Below, one piece after another: positions 18,002 through 57,607 of a stretch of 64,000 nucleotides of DNA; position 1 is the stretch's first letter; each line of letters starts with the position of its first letter. Below the pieces are notes generated by a model that worked only from the letters and a program-made list of their open reading frames with translations, made no database searches and was not told the DNA's origin. Origin of the DNA: Chiloscyllium plagiosum (Eukaryota); contig NC_057718.1 in NCBI RefSeq assembly GCF_004010195.1, forward strand, positions 97,281,644 to 97,345,643. Direction: 5' to 3'. The translations under genes were made by a program, and so were the position numbers.

Positions 18002-18843
18002 GGAGAAAGTGAGGACTGCAGATGCTGGAGTACCAGAGTTGAAAAATGTGGTGCTGGAAAAGCGCTGTGGGCCAGGCAGCATCCGAGGAGCAGGGTAATC
18101 GACGTTTCGGGCATAAGCCCTTTTTCAGGAATGAGGCTAGTGTGCCAAGCGGGCTGAGATAAAAGGTAGGGGGNNNNNNNNNNNNNNNNNNNNNNNNNNN
18201 NNNNNNNNNNNNNNNNNNNNNNNNNNNNNNNNNNNNNNNNNNNNNNNNNNNNNNNNNNNNNNNNNNNNNNNNNNNNNNNNNNNNNNNNNNNNNNNNNNNN
18301 NNNNNNNNNNNNNNNNNNNNNNNNNNNNNNNNNNNNNNNNNNNNNNNNNNNNNNNNNNNNNNNNNNNNNNNNNNNNNNNNNNNNNNNNNNNNNNNNNNNN
18401 NNNNNNNNNNNNNNNNNNNNNNNNNNNNNNNNNNNNNNNNNNNNNNNNNNNNNNNNNNNNNNNNNNNNNNNNNNNNNNNNNNNNNNNNNNNNNNNNNNNN
18501 NNNNNNNNNNNNNNNNNNNNNNNNNNNNNNNNNNNNNNNNNNNNNNNNNNNNNNNNNNNNNNNNNNNNNNNNNNNNNNNNNNNNNNNNNNNNNNNNNNNN
18601 NNNNNNNNNNNNNNNNNNNNNGGGGTCTGTCTGGAGGTGGCGGAAATGATGGAGGATGATACGATGTATCCGGAGGTTGGTGGGGTGGAAGGTGAGGACC
18701 AGTGGGGTTCTGTCCTGGTGGTGATTGGAGGGGTGGGGTTCAAGGGCAGAGGTGCGGGAAGTGGAGGAGATGCGGTGGAGAGCATCGTTGACCACGTCAG
18801 AGGGGAAATTGCGGTCTTTGAAGAAGATGGCCATTTGAGTTGT
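18002..18843 (-). mobile_element. 5'-truncated PLE (family A, Neptune-like), spanning an N gap
   Basis: FFKDRNFPSDVVNDAL...RTPLVLTFHPTNLRIHRII linker region plus family A terminus; TSD TACTAAAGTTCTG at 17989-18001 and 18844-18856. Confidence 0.85.
18174..18621. other. Assembly gap
   Basis: Run of N. Confidence 1.
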
Positions 18844-27290: not shown

Positions 27291-28984
27291 CGTTAGTCAA
27301 GTCAAGTCAAGAGTAGCTTTTAATTGTCATTTCTGCCAAAAACAACTGATACAATAAAAACAACTCAGCGTTCCTCCAGGACCAGGGTGCTACACGGACA
27401 GCACAAACCACACGAAAGGACAGTTATACACAGGGCAGCATAAAGGTTAGGGGCCCAGTGCTGGAAAATGGGTTGAGAATAGTTAGAGAGTTGTTTTTGA
27501 CCATGGCAGGCACAGTACGTCGAAGGGCTTTTTTTCTGTGCTGTCAATCTCCAGACTCAAGAATGAATGTTTCCCCTTGTGGGGCAATCTAGAACAAGAG
27601 GGTCATGTTTAAGACAAAGTGGGAGCAGATTGTAAACCGAGATGAGAATGAATTACTGCTCTGAGAACGTGGTGAGTCACTACCGCAGAGCGCAATGAAT
27701 ACTAGGAGTAAATTTAAAGAGGAGACGGACCGGTAGATTTTTAATGTGTAGGGACAAAGGATTGTGGAGAATGGGCAGGACAATGAAGTTGAGACTGAGA
27801 TGAGATCAGCCATGATCCTATTACATGCCGTAACAGCCTCAAAGTGGCAGAATGGCCAACTCTTGCCCCCAGGTCTTCTGTTCTTCAGCGAAATTATATT
27901 ACGTGGCACTTTGCCACATCCGTAACGTCAAACCAGGCAGTGTTTAGCATCCGACCTGTCTTCCTGCAAGTTCCTTTCTCCCCCCCTTCATATCTTGTGT
28001 TTGCTAAGATTGAAACGTAGCTGGCAGAGAACATGTGGGCAGCTTCCGGCAGTAACTCCGTTTCAGCATCTTAACTTCCATAATTGGAAATCGGGTGAGG
28101 GAGGAGGAGTTGGGGAAACTGCATAGTTGCAACTCCTTATCAGATCATTTGGTCTGAGCTCCCAGTTTTTAACTATAATTGTTTTTATTTTCTTGTGGGG
28201 TATGAGCCTCACTGGCTGGGCCAGTGTTTATTGCCCATCCCTAGTTGCCCTTAAATGCATCAGTGTTGCTGTGCTAAGAGGGAAAAGTACAAATATATTA
28301 AATGCTAAGAGTGAGTTATGGATCCTATGATTTGCAAATGATGCTGCATGATATTTTAAAAAATGCACGATATGAAAATACTGGTCAGGCATCAGTAAAC
28401 TGTTGCTCACAATCAACAAGACATATGGTCCAATCATTTTCTGTAATGTGGTGACTAAACATCAACATTTTTGCAAAGTGCATTGTTGGCGTTGGACCCA
28501 CAGGATACTGTAGGGGCGTAGGAGTGATCACTTTGCCAGTTTCTGGGGTAAAGGAAGTTGGTGGTGTTGTACTAAACCGGAGGTTCCTTTAAAGAGAGAG
28601 GACAGAGATGTTGGGCCGAACGGCCTCACGCTGCGGTCTAAGATTCTAGCAGACAACATGTCCCAAAGGCCACCAATGTGTGGTGTGTTGTGAACGACAC
28701 GTACAGGCTGGTGGTAAACTCCAGTCTACGTCCCACAGCATTCCTCAGAGGTTCACAGTCGGCTTGGGACCCAATGCGTTCTTAAATTGCACCAAGCCAC
28801 TGGCTCACCAGCATGCAGTACTGACAGCCATTTCTGCTCAGGAGTCATTATTAAGAGTTGGGCTGAAGTGGGAAACTGGTGGATGGGGAGAGTTCAGCGT
28901 TAACAGACCAGCTTTGGGTGGGATTTGATAGCAGCTCAGAACATTTGAAAATTTTGGTGGGATCATATTCAAGACTGCACTTGC

Positions 28985-29080
28985 CTGGAGTCGAGAGTGT
29001 GGCGCTGGAAAAGCACAGCATGTCCGGCAGCATCCGAGGAGCAGGAGAGTCGACGTTTCAGGCATAAGCCCCTCACCAGG
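28985..29080 (-). mobile_element. PLE family A terminus (donor of the 29910-29987 insert)
   Basis: Family A sequence with the private variant CATGTCCGGCAGC. Confidence 0.8.
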
Positions 29081-29862: not shown

Positions 29863-30034
29863 CACAGACCAATCTGTGGCCAGCAACTCTTCTCTACTCA
29901 GCAGCGCCAGTTGGTGGGTTCATATTCAAGACTGCACTTGCCTGGAGTCGAGAGTGTGGCGCTGGAAAAGCACAGCATGTCCGGCAGCACAGACCAATCT
30001 GTGGCCAGCAACTCTTCTCTACTCAGCAGCGCCA
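29863..30034. repeat. 47 bp direct duplication flanking a templated insert
   Basis: 29863-29909 is identical to 29988-30034; the insert between them copies 28954-29032. Confidence 0.95.
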
Positions 30035-42315: not shown

Positions 42316-43832
42316 CTATATTTGATAATCATTGTTAAATTGCAACACTACCTATTTTCAAAGGCTTGAAAGCTTCGATCCTTTTCGGAAACAGAAGTTG
42401 CTGGAGAAACTCAGCAGGTCTGGCAGCATCTAGTGGAGGGAAAGCAGGGTTAAGCGACCATGCTTCAGAACTGGACCCTTTCTGATTTTTAATAAGTCCA
42501 CCTACCTGTTTTAACCTGGTGCAGGGCAAATAATGAGGCCTTTTGGAGTATGGTGCCCTGGGGATTGTGGCACCGAGGCATCATTAAAACAGTCGAATTC
42601 AAACTTGAGCCCGAACACAGCAGGGATGACTATCCAGCTGGAAGATGTGAGGTCAAAGGTCAGGCAGGTTCAGGCAGCAGGGGCTGGACTCAATGCGGGG
42701 CACAGCCAGTGACTGTGGTGCGTCCTAAGGTGCTCGAGATCAACTCGGCCCTACTTCATTGGCTCACTTCCAGCCACATTCCTGTCCAGTGACCACTGAC
42801 AGGTTGGGAAACACGGCAAGAATGTTATTACTCTTGCTTCAGGGTCTTAACGTGCCACCAAGCTTAAATGCTAGCCAGTCTGTGGAGGCGCCTCCTGTAG
42901 ACTGGAGGTTGAAATGGCACCCAGTGGAGTATTGTGTGCCTTTTGATTTGTTTACTCTTCCATGCGATGTGGGCATCATTGGCAAGACCAACACTTGTTG
43001 CCCATTCCTGCTTTCTCTGCGTGTGTGTGTGTGTCACTTCAGTCAAGAGTTGGCCACATTGCTGCAGGTGTGGACTCACCAAACACCGTGAGAATGGCGG
43101 ATGATAGTGAGCCAGCTGGGATTTTACCGTGACCAACAATCCTTTCACTGAGACTAGGGTTCAGGTCCAGGTTTAGTTCATTGAATATAAACTCTACCAC
43201 CTACCACAGTGGGATTTGAACCCGTGTTCCCAGGACCCTCCAGTCCAGTGACATTGCCACCATGCAGTGATGAGATAAGGATGCAGCCCCGATTTCAGGG
43301 CTGTGCCCATTGTTTTCTTGCATTGAGGGTTAAAATTGAGGCATGTGCGTTCCGATTTCCAGCAGGGTTAACTTTCATGTAAACAACGGGTTGTTCTGAT
43401 CTAATCCAGTTAGAAAATTTCAAACACATCCTTTCTTGCCATAAGCAAATGATAATTTATGAGATCCAGTTAGCATCTACGATTGCTTTCAGGTGAGGTA
43501 AATGAGTATCTAGGCAATGTTGCGCTTCAGTAAGGCTGCACTTCCAAAAACAAGTGATCTTGCATCATTCAATTTAACGCAACACATTGCAGAAACCAAG
43601 AAACAGATTTGTCTCCATCACCATTTTATTTCTGGGTTACTACACTAAAAACATTGGACATACTTTTATCTTGTTAAGAGTGCTTGAAAGTTGGTCCAAC
43701 TGCCTGGATGCTACATCAACAGAAGCAAACCAGTGCTTTGCCGTCCATCATAACAAGTCTTTCAGCTACCCGTTAATGTACACGTTCCTACAATAGCCAT
43801 TTTATCTCTTCTGCTTAGACTTTCCTTCAAAG

Positions 43833-44126
43833 GCTAGAGTGGTGCTAGAAAAGCACAGCAGGTAAGGCAGCATCCGAGGAGCAGGAGAGTCGACGTTTCG
43901 GGCAAAAGCCCTTTCTCAATTCCTGCTGAAGGTCTTTTGCCCGAAACGTTGATTTTCCTGCTCCTCGGATGCTGCCTGACCTGCTGTGCTTTTCCAGCAC
44001 CACTCTGATCTAAACTCTGGCTTCCAGCACCTGCAGTCCTCACTTTTGCCAAGAGGGAGAAACTACTTCTCTAGCACCACTCTAATCTTGACTCTGATCT
44101 CCAGCATCTGCAGTACCCACTTCTGC
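43833..44126. mobile_element. Chimeric PLE family A foldback containing an inverted copy of 48115-48271
   Basis: TSD CTTTCCTTC(A/G)AAG at 43820-43832 and 44127-44139; 44041-44071 is the exact reverse complement of 48115-48145. Confidence 0.9.
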
Positions 44127-44364
44127 CTTTCCTTCGAAGATGATCAGCCACCATGATGTGGACTTCTGCCTACAATAGGATATTTATACCTGATGGGCAA
44201 TATTTACTTTGGCTCTCAGAACTAAAGGACTAGATGTGGGTAAGATAGATTCAACAAATGTTTATCACAGCTTCTGGTATATTCACATATGACAGTCGCA
44301 GGCACTTCAGTGTCTGGGATAATATTAAGCTGTTTGATTCAATGTTAGCCTATTTCCTGTAGCA

Positions 44365-44456
44365 TGAAAATGTGTTGCTGGAAAAGTGCAGCAGGTCAGG
44401 CAGCATCCAAGGAACAGGAGAATCGACGTTTCGGGCATAAGTTCTTCTTCAGGAAT
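44365..44456 (-). mobile_element. PLE family A terminus
   Basis: Family A motif with TGTAGCATG on both sides. Confidence 0.75.
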
Positions 44457-45795
44457 GTAGCATGTCATGCTTCCAATGCCCTAGTTAGGATGGATTCTGA
44501 GACCTTCATACCTCACAGCATGTGCAATGATTTGCCGATAATCCCACAAGCATGTCTTTGAAAAGTATACAGCGTCCTCGCTGTGGTAGAGAGAAGACAA
44601 CACCTTCTACTCCAATTTGATGGTTACTAAGATGATGGATAAGTCTAATACGTGGTCTACTGACTCTGGGTCAAATGGTGTTTGAGGGATTGGCTGGAGG
44701 TTTGTGCTCTCCCTCCAACACCACAACTTTGCCTCTGCCTGTTCCTGGCAAAGTCTCGCCGTGTGTTCCCTGTTTTCCCCCCAGAGCACCATCTCCATTT
44801 TGTTTGGTTATACACCAAGGTGTCCCATGAGACTTTGGGGATCCTAAAAGTACCTCCGTTGTCCTTTTGGAAGTCTGGAACGTTAACTACATCCCACTCT
44901 CTATGAAGGCTGCCCGACCTACTGGTTCCTGCATTTCTTCAGTCCGGTTCCATGCTGGATTTCTACCTTCTCCAGAATTTTCCCCTGGGTTTATTTGTTT
45001 TTTCTCTGACACAGTGATTCATCAGAGCATTGCTCTTGCTACTCTACATCGACCCAAAAAATAACTCTGCTCTGATCAGGGATCATTGTGTTCAGGTGAT
45101 ACACAGTCATTAGGACCACTCTTGTTCTACCCACACTCATCCGAAGTCTGGCAGTAAACCTCAGTAAGCCTCCAGCGGAAGAGGGTATAACATCCAAAAT
45201 GAATTGCGCTGGCGTAGATCTCTGGTACTACCGCGACAGGTGAATACTTTGACGGTTTTTAAGAATATTTTTCTTACCAATTTCCGATCCCACATTCTCC
45301 TCTTTTCCCCATTGCTGAGGATTCTGTTTATTTCTTCCATGGGATGTGAATTGTTTGGACCACCGTTTATTGCCCATTCCTGTTGCACTTGAGAAGTTAG
45401 TGGTTGCATGTAAGACAGCCATGACAAAGTCTCTCAGTGTGGTCCCTGCTTTCCCCAGAGCACCATCTCCATGGTGTCCCATGAGTCTTTGGGGACATCC
45501 CTATAGCATCTCCATTGTCCTTTTGGAAGCCTGGAACATTAACTCAGGTCACGTGACACTGAGTGCCGGAAGACTTACTCCAAGGCCTGTGGTGTTGGGA
45601 TTTCATATATCTTTTTCAATGCTCTCATGGGACTGGCTGGGCCAGCAATTTTTCTTCATCCCTGGTTGCTGTTGAGAAGGTGGGGGTGAGCTGCCTCCTT
45701 GAACTGCTGCAGTCCATGTGCTGTAGGTTGACCCACAAAGCCCTTAAGGAGAGAATTCCAGGATTTTGACCCAGCAACAGTGAATCGAAGTCAGG

Positions 45796-46453
45796 ATGGT
45801 GAGATTTGGAGGACTGCTTGCAGGTGGTGATGTTTTCATGTATCTACTGCCCCTGCCATTACACATATAATGTATATAATTCCAGAGGCAGTTCTGGGCT
45901 CCAGGTTGCTCTCAATGAGAATGCCGATAGCACAGTGCTGAGTTTTCATCTCCTACCAGCGCAGGCCATCGGGTGTAGTTACAATCTCCATGCTGTTAGG
46001 GTGGGAGTACAAGGATTTGGACCCAACGGCAATGGAATGGCAATACAATTCAAGGTCAGGCTGATGAGTGGCATGGAGAGAAACTGGTGGGCGACACGGT
46101 GGCACAGTGGTTAGCACTGCTGCCTCACAGTGCCAGAGATCCGGGTTCAATTCCCGCCATGGTGAGATTTGGAGGACTGCTTGCAGGTGGTGATGTTTTC
46201 ATGTATCTACTGCCCCTGCCATTACACATATAATGTATATAATTCCAGAGGCAGTTCTGGGCTCCAGGTTGCTCTCAATGAGAATGCCGATAGCACAGTG
46301 CTGAGTTTTCATCTCCTACCAGCGCAGGCCATCGGGTGTAGTTACACTCTCCATGCTGTTAGGGTGGGAGTACAAGGATTTGGACCCAATGGCAGCAAAG
46401 GAATGGCAATACAATTCCAGGTCAGGATGATGAGTGGCATGGAGAGAAACTGG
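45796..46453. repeat. About 292 bp near-identical direct duplication separated by a SINE head
   Basis: 45796-46087 matches 46159-46453; 46089-46158 is an HE1 tRNA-like head only. Confidence 0.95.
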
Positions 46454-46659
46454 CAGAGGCTGGCATTCCCATGTACCTGCTGCCCTTGTCCTTTGAGAGC
46501 TCACAGGTTTGGAAGGTGCTGGTGAAGGAGCCTTGGTGAATTGCTGCAGAGCATCATGTAGATGGTAGACACTCCTGTCAATGCATTGATGATGAAGGGA
46601 GTGAATGTTGAAGACATTAAATGAACAATGATGACCCTTTGCAGTTTGCTTTTGACCTC

Positions 46660-46995
46660 TTCATAGAATCCCAAGTGTAGAACCAGAAGACCATTTGGCC
46701 CAACAGGTCCACACCGACCCTCCATAAAGCATCCCACTGACCCTACCTTATCCCTGAATTTCTCATGGCTAATCACCTAACCTGTACATCCCTGGACACT
46801 ATGGGGCTATTTAGCATGGCCAATTCACCTAACCTGCACATCTTTGGACTGTGGGAGGAAACCGGAGCACCCAAAGGAAATCCGTGCAGACACAGAGAGA
46901 ATATGCAAATTCCACACAGACAGTTGCCCGAGGGTAGAATCAAACCCAGGTCCCTGGTGCTGTGGGGCAACAGTGCTAACCACTGAGCCACTGTG
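46660..46995 (-). mobile_element. HE1-type V-SINE
   Basis: Near full length. Confidence 0.9.
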
Positions 46996-48136
46996 TCGTG
47001 CAAGTGGCCATGCTTGGCTGCCCTCTGGGGAACCCCACATACAAACATAAACCTCATCCTGGTCCAAGCCAGTGCACAGCAAGCATTAGTGCAAACAGTT
47101 GCTCCCTTGCCCTTCCTTCACCCAAGGGCATGGAGCCCACTGCAGTGCCCACCTGCTATCTGGAATGACAGTGGGTAACTCTGCACAGAGCAGTGACAGG
47201 AGCTTAGCGATTTGTCTCATTTGGTCAGGGAGCAGATTCCCCCAGTCAGTCACAGGGGCCATTTCCCACATGCAATTCTGTACAAGGAAACAGCGACAAT
47301 TTTTCAAAACGGAGGAAGCTAAATGAAGGGCCAAGTGTAAAGGCATCCATCTTTTGAGGTGCCAAGTTCTGATGAGATAATCCATCAAGTCAAACCATTA
47401 TAGAGAGCATGGTATATTCAAAAGCAGGCACATCTTGTTAAATTATAACTGTAAAGGGCACTAAGGCACTCACTGACAATCATGCATAGAATGTGCATTT
47501 GCTTTTCCTTCAAGAAGCATACACAGAAAGAACAAGTGACTTTGTTGTTTATCTCTGAGAATCCAATGAAGCATTAAACACTACTGCTGCTGGTTTAAAA
47601 AAAAAGTGAATGATGTCTTTGCTTCAAGAGCTCATTAATCTGTGATTTGATCTTTAATGACATCTCCCATTAAACAAGCTCCTGTCTGCTACCATGCAGT
47701 GCGACATGAGCAAGCCAGTTAGACTTACATCCACTGCAGATTTCACCCCATTTAAAAACACATCATGTTTAGCGCCTTGTTGCTAGGTAGCTGGCTGGCC
47801 ATGTGTAGTTTCTAGGCACACAACTCATGCTTTGTGCATTTAAATGTAACCCCTGTGAAGTGCTCAATTGATTTTGTCCAAGCAATCTTCAATTCTATTT
47901 TTTTTGCGCGTTTCCATTTTTAGGAGCCAGTGATGTTAATGAGCTCTTTATGAGTGCAACATAGCTTAAAGGCCAGGCTGGCCAGCTCATCTAAGGACGC
48001 TGGGGAAGATGCAGCTCTAATCATGGAAGGCTACTAATGGGCAATAAATGTCATGGTCATTTATGTTTGAAAGCAAAGATTACATCTTCTAAATTTTTGA
48101 TTTGATTTCAAATGGAGAAGTAGTTTCTCCCTCTTG

Positions 48137-48273
48137 GCAAAAGTGAGGACTGCAGGTGCTGAAAACCAGAGTTTAGATCAGAGAGGTGCTGGAAAAGCAC
48201 AGCAGGTCAGGCAGCATCCGAGGAACAGGAAAATCAACGTTTCGGGCAAAAGCCCTTCATCAGGAATGGAGGC
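48137..48273 (-). mobile_element. PLE family A terminus with intact hammerhead core (48236-48263)
   Basis: 15 bp TSD AGTTTCTCCCTCTTG at 48122-48136 and 48274-48288; minus-strand CTGATGAAGGGCTTTTGCCCGAAACGTT. Confidence 0.9.
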
Positions 48274-48288
48274 AGTTTCTCCCTCTTG

Positions 48289-57304: not shown

Positions 57305-57607
57305 AGACACACACACACACACAGACATACTCACACACAGACACACACACACAGACACACGCAGACACACACACACAGACGCACACACAGTCACACGCAG
57401 ACACACATACAGACACACACAGACAGACACACATACACACAGATGCACACACAGACAGACACACACACNNNNNNNNNNNNNNNNNGACACACATACACAC
57501 ATACACACGGACACACACGCGCACACACACACTCACAGACACACACACAGACACACACATGGACACACACACCCACCCACACACACAGACAGATACACAC
57601 ACACACA
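57305..57607 (+). repeat. Imperfect (CA)n/(CAGA)n microsatellite inside a CR1 fragment, with an N gap at 57469-57485
   Basis: Visible directly; it explains the HT/CV-rich ORFs. Confidence 0.98.

Follow-up and report, generated by a model that had tools for sequence, protein, structure and literature searches.

The window analyzed here is a 64,000-nucleotide (nt) stretch of the Chiloscyllium plagiosum genome (G000:C9:97281644-97345643 of a 3.56-Gb assembly), and it contains two neighboring insertions belonging to a hammerhead-bearing Penelope-like element (PLE) family. The acceptor insertion, at 43833-44126, is enclosed by a 13-bp target-site duplication and has a 157-nt patch placed at the seam between its arms; the donor, at 48136-48273, is a monomer. 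The patch is an inverted copy of DNA at the donor and comprises the neighboring element, its 14-bp target-site duplication, and 7 nt of host DNA. The features are as follows (window positions):

43820..43832, no strand: outer target-site duplication, left copy; 13 bp, 1 mismatch
43833..43913, minus strand: acceptor inverted arm, without tail; T variant at 43847 also at right-arm 44072
43915..44050, plus strand: donor element copied in ribozyme sense; changes private to the copy: 43918, 43926, 43933, and 44021
43923..43950, plus strand: predicted minimal hammerhead core within the copy; damage at 43926 (core) and 43933 (stem II)
44051..44064, plus strand: copied 14-bp donor target-site duplication
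44065..44071, plus strand: 7 nt of host DNA past the donor duplication; the final 6 nt agree with the acceptor subfamily at 5/6 positions
44072..44126, plus strand: acceptor direct arm, short, with tail
44127..44139, no strand: outer target-site duplication, right copy
48115..48121, minus strand: donor host flank, first template bases in the complementary DNA (cDNA) direction
48122..48135, no strand: donor target-site duplication, 3′ side; 14 bp, exact
48136..48273, minus strand: donor, a monomer with a hammerhead; changes private to the donor: 48225, 48184, and 48162
48236..48263, minus strand: predicted minimal hammerhead core of the donor
48274..48287, no strand: donor target-site duplication, 5′ side; 14 bp, exact

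The patch, 43915-44071, matches the reverse complement of 48115-48271 at 150/157 positions without a gap, with 4,043 nt between the two arms of the inverted match. Within it, 44041-44071 is exactly reverse-complementary to 48115-48145 over 31 nt, and direct comparison bore out the initial annotation of this DNA on both matches. That annotation had also taken 21 nt of the patch for host flank plus most of the target-site duplication of an element at 48137-48273; the 21 nt are indeed non-family flank, but they hold the whole 14-bp duplication plus 7 nt of host DNA, and the donor is 48136-48273. Because the donor is a monomer having an exact 14-bp duplication and unique flanks, it is the source. 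An extra C at the donor 5′ end was considered as a base taken from the target; this idea was abandoned, since other family copies have the variant too, and with it went the notion of an origin from an excised circle. With its predicted ribozyme core damaged, the copy appears to be a dead scar without function.

The outer arms belong to one subfamily, in line with the claim that the copy sits between arms of a different variant, and the tail of the right arm is of another subfamily than the donor's, the two tails being 81% alike. The T variant common to both outer arms (43847, 44072) is present in 2/28 aligned subfamily members and indicates a single template for both arms. The left arm departs from the majority of its subfamily at 4/79 positions, one of them common to the right arm. 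The acceptor does have the 13-bp duplication of its own that had been proposed (43820-43832/44127-44139), but with one mismatch, and its first 2 nt are also compatible with the 3′ end of the acceptor subfamily. At the joint between copy and right arm (44071/44072), the acceptor subfamily has CTTTTC upstream of the right arm (20/29 with C as the next base) and the copy ends in CTTCTC, for an overlap of 2 nt exact, or 5/6. At the joint with the left arm, the overlap is 0-3 nt. Diagnostic-site differences between left arm and copy start at 43950; 43915-43949 is not firmly assignable to donor or acceptor, which leaves room for a homology-first route. The patch ends have no target duplication of their own, and there is no poly(A).

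A 71-nt junction-spanning query, scored for best candidates only, gave 10 matches in the 3.56-Gb assembly: eight are family sequence only, and the 21-nt flank is present in just two, the patch and the donor; the query is of the kind suggested earlier for the 21-mer joined to family sequence. The 21-mer scores 42-48 within 10 kb, whereas the best score among 56-58 distant windows of 20 kb is 26-31. The variants common to copy and donor, pointed out in the initial annotation, are uncommon (3/262 and 6/262 arms), but the family part alone is non-diagnostic, with 94.9% identity to the donor over 136 nt and 93.9% to the next-best copy over 132 nt. Judged against 16 donor-like arms, the copy has four private changes and the donor three (for 43918, one arm only is informative), which makes the patch an old duplication. 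Contigs of organisms B (X5) and C (X7) begin inside the right arm and extend into the right flank, indicating that the insertion predates those species splits; the donor and its flank are also present in both organisms.

Short copies of the family start near the minimal hammerhead and finish in the tail. A descriptor of a minimal type I hammerhead (CUGANGA, stem II, GAAA, short palindromic stem III, NUH) matches 144/508 arms; stem II is mostly paired among the arms, with a double change from G-C to A-U in five. Rfam reported no hammerhead at the gathering threshold or at E<=10, its microRNA matches were rejected as hairpin noise, and in free folding of the donor the hammerhead is not the best fold (z +1.2). 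The predicted ribozyme resembles the minimal hammerheads described in PLE pseudo-long terminal repeats (PMC4209133) in its core, a single additional base ahead of stem II, palindromic 15.2-16.2, and absence of loop 3; it differs in having a stem II of 4-5 bp, and it would play no visible part in capture. Longer family copies extend upstream of the terminal repeat into a broken open reading frame (ORF) with a YIDD motif (L180 copy), taken to be that of the reverse transcriptase. On this ORF, Pfam RVT_1 gives a weak match below the cut-off (E 0.066), and Atlas feature matches reach 0.94-0.95 to HTH_animal PF26215 clusters. By its motif, the end of the ORF adjoining the repeat resembles the C-terminus of a PLE endonuclease, putatively of GIY-YIG type; this 94-aa piece has no match in Pfam.

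In a contiguous 1.664-Mb region surrounding the window, 116/375 family loci have head-to-head arms, with examples having tail and duplication, and the outer arms and 13-bp duplication of the acceptor are the family's ordinary head-to-head form. At 40/118 seams, an arm is 62 nt or shorter; short arms are thus normal, and no later arm loss is needed at 43833-44126. An inverted 5′-truncated copy with a one-sided tail and a target duplication is described as the insertion unit of endonuclease-positive PLEs (PMC3846280, PMC8557442), and the family conforms to it in its head-to-head arms, one-sided tail, surrounding duplication, and minimal hammerhead. The difference lies in the additional DNA: the cases given in those papers have host DNA between terminal repeats, whereas here copies of DNA 0.4-4 kb away are present at the seam.

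To count such patches, we performed an ungapped screen of all 375 loci; it replaced a first seam screen that had missed 43915-44071, as had a general local-duplication screen, whose counts are not used as rates. Low-coverage runs are located at seams, and 30,556 bp of arm interior (375 loci) contains no insert. A template within 10 kb was sought for 21 runs: 3 outscore all 56-57 distant windows, 16 have none, and 2 (window-relative −595064/−594327) are one palindrome duplicated whole, 0.7 kb apart. Locally templated DNA is thus present at 3/118 seams, with templates 1.5, 2.0, and 4.1 kb away: a 30-nt minisatellite piece (1.5 kb, direct), 33 nt of unique DNA (2.0 kb, inverted), and 43915-44071. 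Assuming 30 nt per seam, the binomial p for seam versus arm interior is 0.001, or 0.011 leaving out 43915-44071. A genome-wide search with the pattern of a tail, 12-40 nt, and mid-element sequence gave four matches, none with a donor within 1.5 kb. The palindrome at the minisatellite-bearing seam (G000:C9 ~96570580-96570790, window-relative −711063) has a right arm far more changed than the left, with many T>C and G>A.

For an independent set of seams, 12 foreign-looking centers of at least 23 nt were chosen by eye from genome-wide lists of young palindromes before their flanks were seen. Five have a clear local template, two are ambiguous, and five are without one. The clear templates are at distances of 373-901 nt, to either side and in either orientation, with identities of 52/52, 28/32, 31/32, 22/23, and 59/60; they are mostly non-element DNA and once a neighbor's 5′ flank. 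With 5 kb searched on each side, L252-L256 all have a local match, of which L256 was removed from the clear count, its insert being an abundant short interspersed nuclear element (SINE) with an equally good match far away. With 2.5 kb on each side, L257 is clear and L258 ambiguous; L258 was removed from the clear count because its template resembles what we take to be the element's own ORF start. The closest sister case of 43915-44071 is L257 (L257:2343-2606), in which the left arm together with 60 further nt copies a family neighbor 500 nt away and that neighbor's 5′ flank (186/189), the patch sits inside L257's own target duplication, and the left arm continues in the cDNA direction into the flank. 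The 3′ position of the captured flank, put forward in the initial annotation, is accordingly not a rule.

Pooled over six seams, one ambiguous seam included, arm-to-arm divergence is 4.0% and insert-to-template divergence 3.1%; excluding L256, both are 3.5%. Similar divergences are what a common age of patch and insertion would give. Young-palindrome matches number 936/913, 268/272, and 223/224 for spacers of 0-19, 20-50, and 51-80 nt, respectively, and the patch rate judged by eye is 0.6-3.3% (54 + 53 listed loci), too wide for a test of age dependence and obtained with a pattern that leaves out short-armed cases. The seam at L259:2450-2530 contains sequence resembling a different hammerhead family.

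We propose, with a probability of about 0.6, that the patch was copied from nearby chromosomal DNA by a loose cDNA end, through microhomology priming, before the cDNA ends were joined. Specifically, both target strands would have been primed, yielding two antisense cDNAs from one RNA, and the right-hand cDNA would have halted after ~55-60 nt. Its 3′ tip may then have primed on the donor flank through the 5/6 match, perhaps held by the ~81% likeness of the tails; a polymerase, either the element reverse transcriptase or a host repair polymerase, would have gone on through flank and duplication and copied the donor as far as its 5′ end; and the new end would have been joined to the left cDNA with an overlap of 0-3 nt. 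The bottom strand, read in the cDNA direction, starts with the tail, jumps to the donor flank, continues in donor antisense as far as the donor 5′ end, and is then joined; the top strand of L257, likewise read in the cDNA direction, gives arm, neighbor's flank, and join. Both reading orders follow cDNA growth. The concentration of patches at seams, the local templates at 5/12 separately chosen seams, and the similar divergences of arms and inserts speak for this course, as does the acceptor itself, with four private changes in the 157 nt of the copy and four departures from the subfamily majority in 79 positions of the left arm. Purified PLE protein is reported to nick and extend both strands and to initiate at two sites that define the tail (PMC11167929), and L1 templated insertions are described as arising during integration (bioRxiv 2024.08.27.596794). 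Of the template switch onto nearby genomic DNA suggested initially, the class of event is supported, nearby DNA being present at other seams too, but it is not a trait of family donors, as the templates are mostly non-element DNA.

Several observations weigh against capture before end joining. At −711063, the arms are visibly diverged and the insert is 28/30 identical to the minisatellite, so that this patch looks later than the integration. At 44069, the copy equals the donor in this species and organisms B and C differ, implying, unless B and C are sisters, that copying followed a species split older than the patch but younger than the right arm. Monomers offer no parallel: a separate local template is present in 0/15 short 5′ fillers of monomers with a recognizable duplication (one filler is a long target duplication), and unique monomer 5′ flanks have a local match in 5/112 cases, no excess over random sites (65/1659). 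No template was found for L259 and L260 within 2.5 kb, or for L211, L212, and L213 within 1.5 kb. In addition, a microhomology-first step needs a lucky landing, and no empty or patch-free allele was seen, which makes the evidence on timing indirect.

The main alternative is later repair, in which a palindrome with a longer sense arm broke near its center and was mended from the nearest homolog, 4 kb away, by a synthesis-dependent strand annealing (SDSA) type of copying, with a 21-nt overrun and a rejoining at microhomology. Such repair, which the initial annotation did not consider, fits size, distance, and junctions equally well: 157 nt, 4.0 kb, microhomology, and an interrupted transposon are in keeping with the duplications of Pace et al. 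2009 (PMC2671141), whose median size is 147 bp and whose donors lie within 5 kb. A homology-first invasion would account for the flank overrun without luck, local duplication is general in this genome (twice-only 16-mers and three flank-carrying pieces, below), and base 44069, the −711063 seam, and the ordinary frequency of local fillers at monomer 5′ ends all favor it. We nevertheless regard it as less likely. It requires a loss of ~70 nt confined to one arm; among young palindromes, perfect or near-perfect centers survive; and the pooled insert and arm divergences are similar. Moreover, the donor's T at 48162 is also present in organism C while the copy retains the family's C, which places copying before the split from that organism, in conflict with the date from 44069 (flank differences do not root the three species). 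The background given by Pace et al., 0.08-0.65 events per Mb of transposon DNA, is also far below the seam rate, so that a trigger specific to seams is needed anyway.

The remaining explanations fare worse. Cis 3′ transduction, also raised at the outset, would have the donor's read-through RNA reverse-transcribed into the neighboring insertion; the copy does run from near the donor 5′ end to 21 nt beyond its 3′ end, like a short read-through RNA, and PLEs can carry host DNA between terminal repeats (PMC3846280). However, the captured piece lies inside another subfamily's arms, without a duplication or poly(A) of its own, other seams contain non-element DNA in both orientations and in one case a 5′ flank, and an RNA, unless nascent, offers no reason for the 4-kb distance, making this course most improbable. 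An assembly artefact, in which gap filling at the palindrome recruited the neighbor's reads, is suggested by an assembly of 101,977 contigs with gaps and by the inner junction, 44071/44072, which no contig crosses in 4/4 runs, including that of same-species sample X15, where only the donor continuation was recovered (query 44036-44092). Contigs of this kind probably lose short unique links that join high-copy nodes. The read check proposed earlier does hold for the outer junctions, left and right, which are crossed by contigs of two same-species samples, X3 and X15; had donor reads been mis-assembled, the donor's changes would have come along, whereas the copy has the family state at all three donor-changed sites plus four changes of its own; and diverged patches at other seams cannot be mis-joins. 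We therefore consider an artefact very unlikely. That the 21-mer is part of a dispersed subfamily can be discounted almost entirely: among the best candidates scored it has only two places in the genome, and at the donor it is target duplication on both sides, continuing into unique flank, in organisms B and C as well.

The patch is thus a real, old, non-functional scar of a known kind and one of a recurrent, seam-targeted class in the family; what is new is the seam counts, the kind of scar being known from L1 templated insertions and repair-mediated duplications. Searches of the accessible full-text literature, which includes few subscription papers, found no description of PLE seam patches of kilobase range. 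L1 templated insertions (bioRxiv 10.1101/2024.08.27.596794) likewise involve genomic DNA of <250 bp copied during integration, with a proposed SDSA-like pairing of cDNA with nearby DNA, and here too a genomic copy lies inside the new element's target duplication at a cDNA end. Their templates are typically within 15 bp of the site (22 cases reported there), whereas here they lie 0.4-4 kb away and the patch is at the seam of two cDNAs. The repair-mediated duplications of Pace et al. share the short size, a donor within 5 kb, microhomology or filler, and the interruption of a transposon, and the sequence features used to recognize them (at least 50 bp, one donor within 5 kb, no poly(A), microhomology) are all present (157 nt at 4,043 nt); those breaks fall anywhere in old transposons, whereas the patches here are at seams, with none in arm interiors. 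L1 3′ transduction also places an element with its downstream flank at a new location, but here there is no poly(A) and no own duplication, the donor is adjacent, and other seams have non-element DNA or, in one case, a 5′ flank. L1 is further described to induce local inversions as well as inverted duplications (bioRxiv 2024.12.14.628481), and a retrozyme preprint (10.64898/2026.07.22.740005) treats tandem forms, with no bearing, in the text consulted, on the seam.

The origin of mirror-image PLE insertions is stated to be unresolved (PMC11167929, PMC8557442). With one subfamily on both sides and a neighbor's copy in between, the acceptor shows that its inverted arm did not arise by folding back from the present right arm or the patch, and this favors two separately primed cDNAs joined by repair. 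Tentatively, and on odds somewhat short of even, PLE integration may leave a broken chromosome with two free cDNA ends for a time sufficient to search a few kb, such that in ~1-3% of head-to-head insertions one of the ends copies local DNA, with homology pulling it to family neighbors. If so, the several hundred thousand seams in this genome would document, in thousands of dated cases, how the PLE cycle ends, a step as yet unexplained, and a local duplication engine distinct from RNA transduction would be at work. What gives 43915-44071 its value is that there are many like it: counting, dating, and mapping of seam patches can address the timing, reach, and homology guidance of end joining.

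Local duplication also occurs away from seams. With satellites included, the density of 16-mers that occur exactly twice is ~100-fold higher at 0.5-2 kb than at distances over 100 kb. In addition, non-element DNA holds three family pieces with flank, each within 1.3 kb of its donor. In the window, flank (34 nt) and adjoining family-copy sequence (45 nt) at 28954-29032 recur at 29911-29989 (direct, 99%, 0.9 kb apart), the latter in non-element DNA between the copies of a 47-nt perfect duplication (29863-29909/29988-30034). At G000:C9 ~96486990-96488570 (−794655 to −793075), a patch consists of two local templates (43 + 183 nt) end to end; it resembles cases of Pace et al. Taken together, these cases show that this genome makes repair-mediated duplications, with the seam as a hotspot. 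Whole palindromic elements are duplicated as well: one with ~130 nt of flank as a 355-nt inverted duplication with the copies 173 nt apart (G000:C9 ~97198918-97199798, −82726 to −81846), and others with the same center 1.2 kb apart (L222/L224, G000:C1:10199814-10201124).

Among further features, assembly gaps are present at 18174-18621, inside a long family copy, and at 57469-57485, and a monomer at window-relative 469482-469576 is flanked by a target duplication of ~85 nt. A duplication of ~290 nt, 97-99% alike (45796-46087/46159-46453), surrounds a 70-nt transfer RNA (tRNA)-like SINE head, presumably HE1, and is either a very long target duplication or an assembly slip. An older direct duplication, ~85% alike with a 20-nt gap, is present at 44746-44888/45422-45544, its copies 0.66 kb apart.

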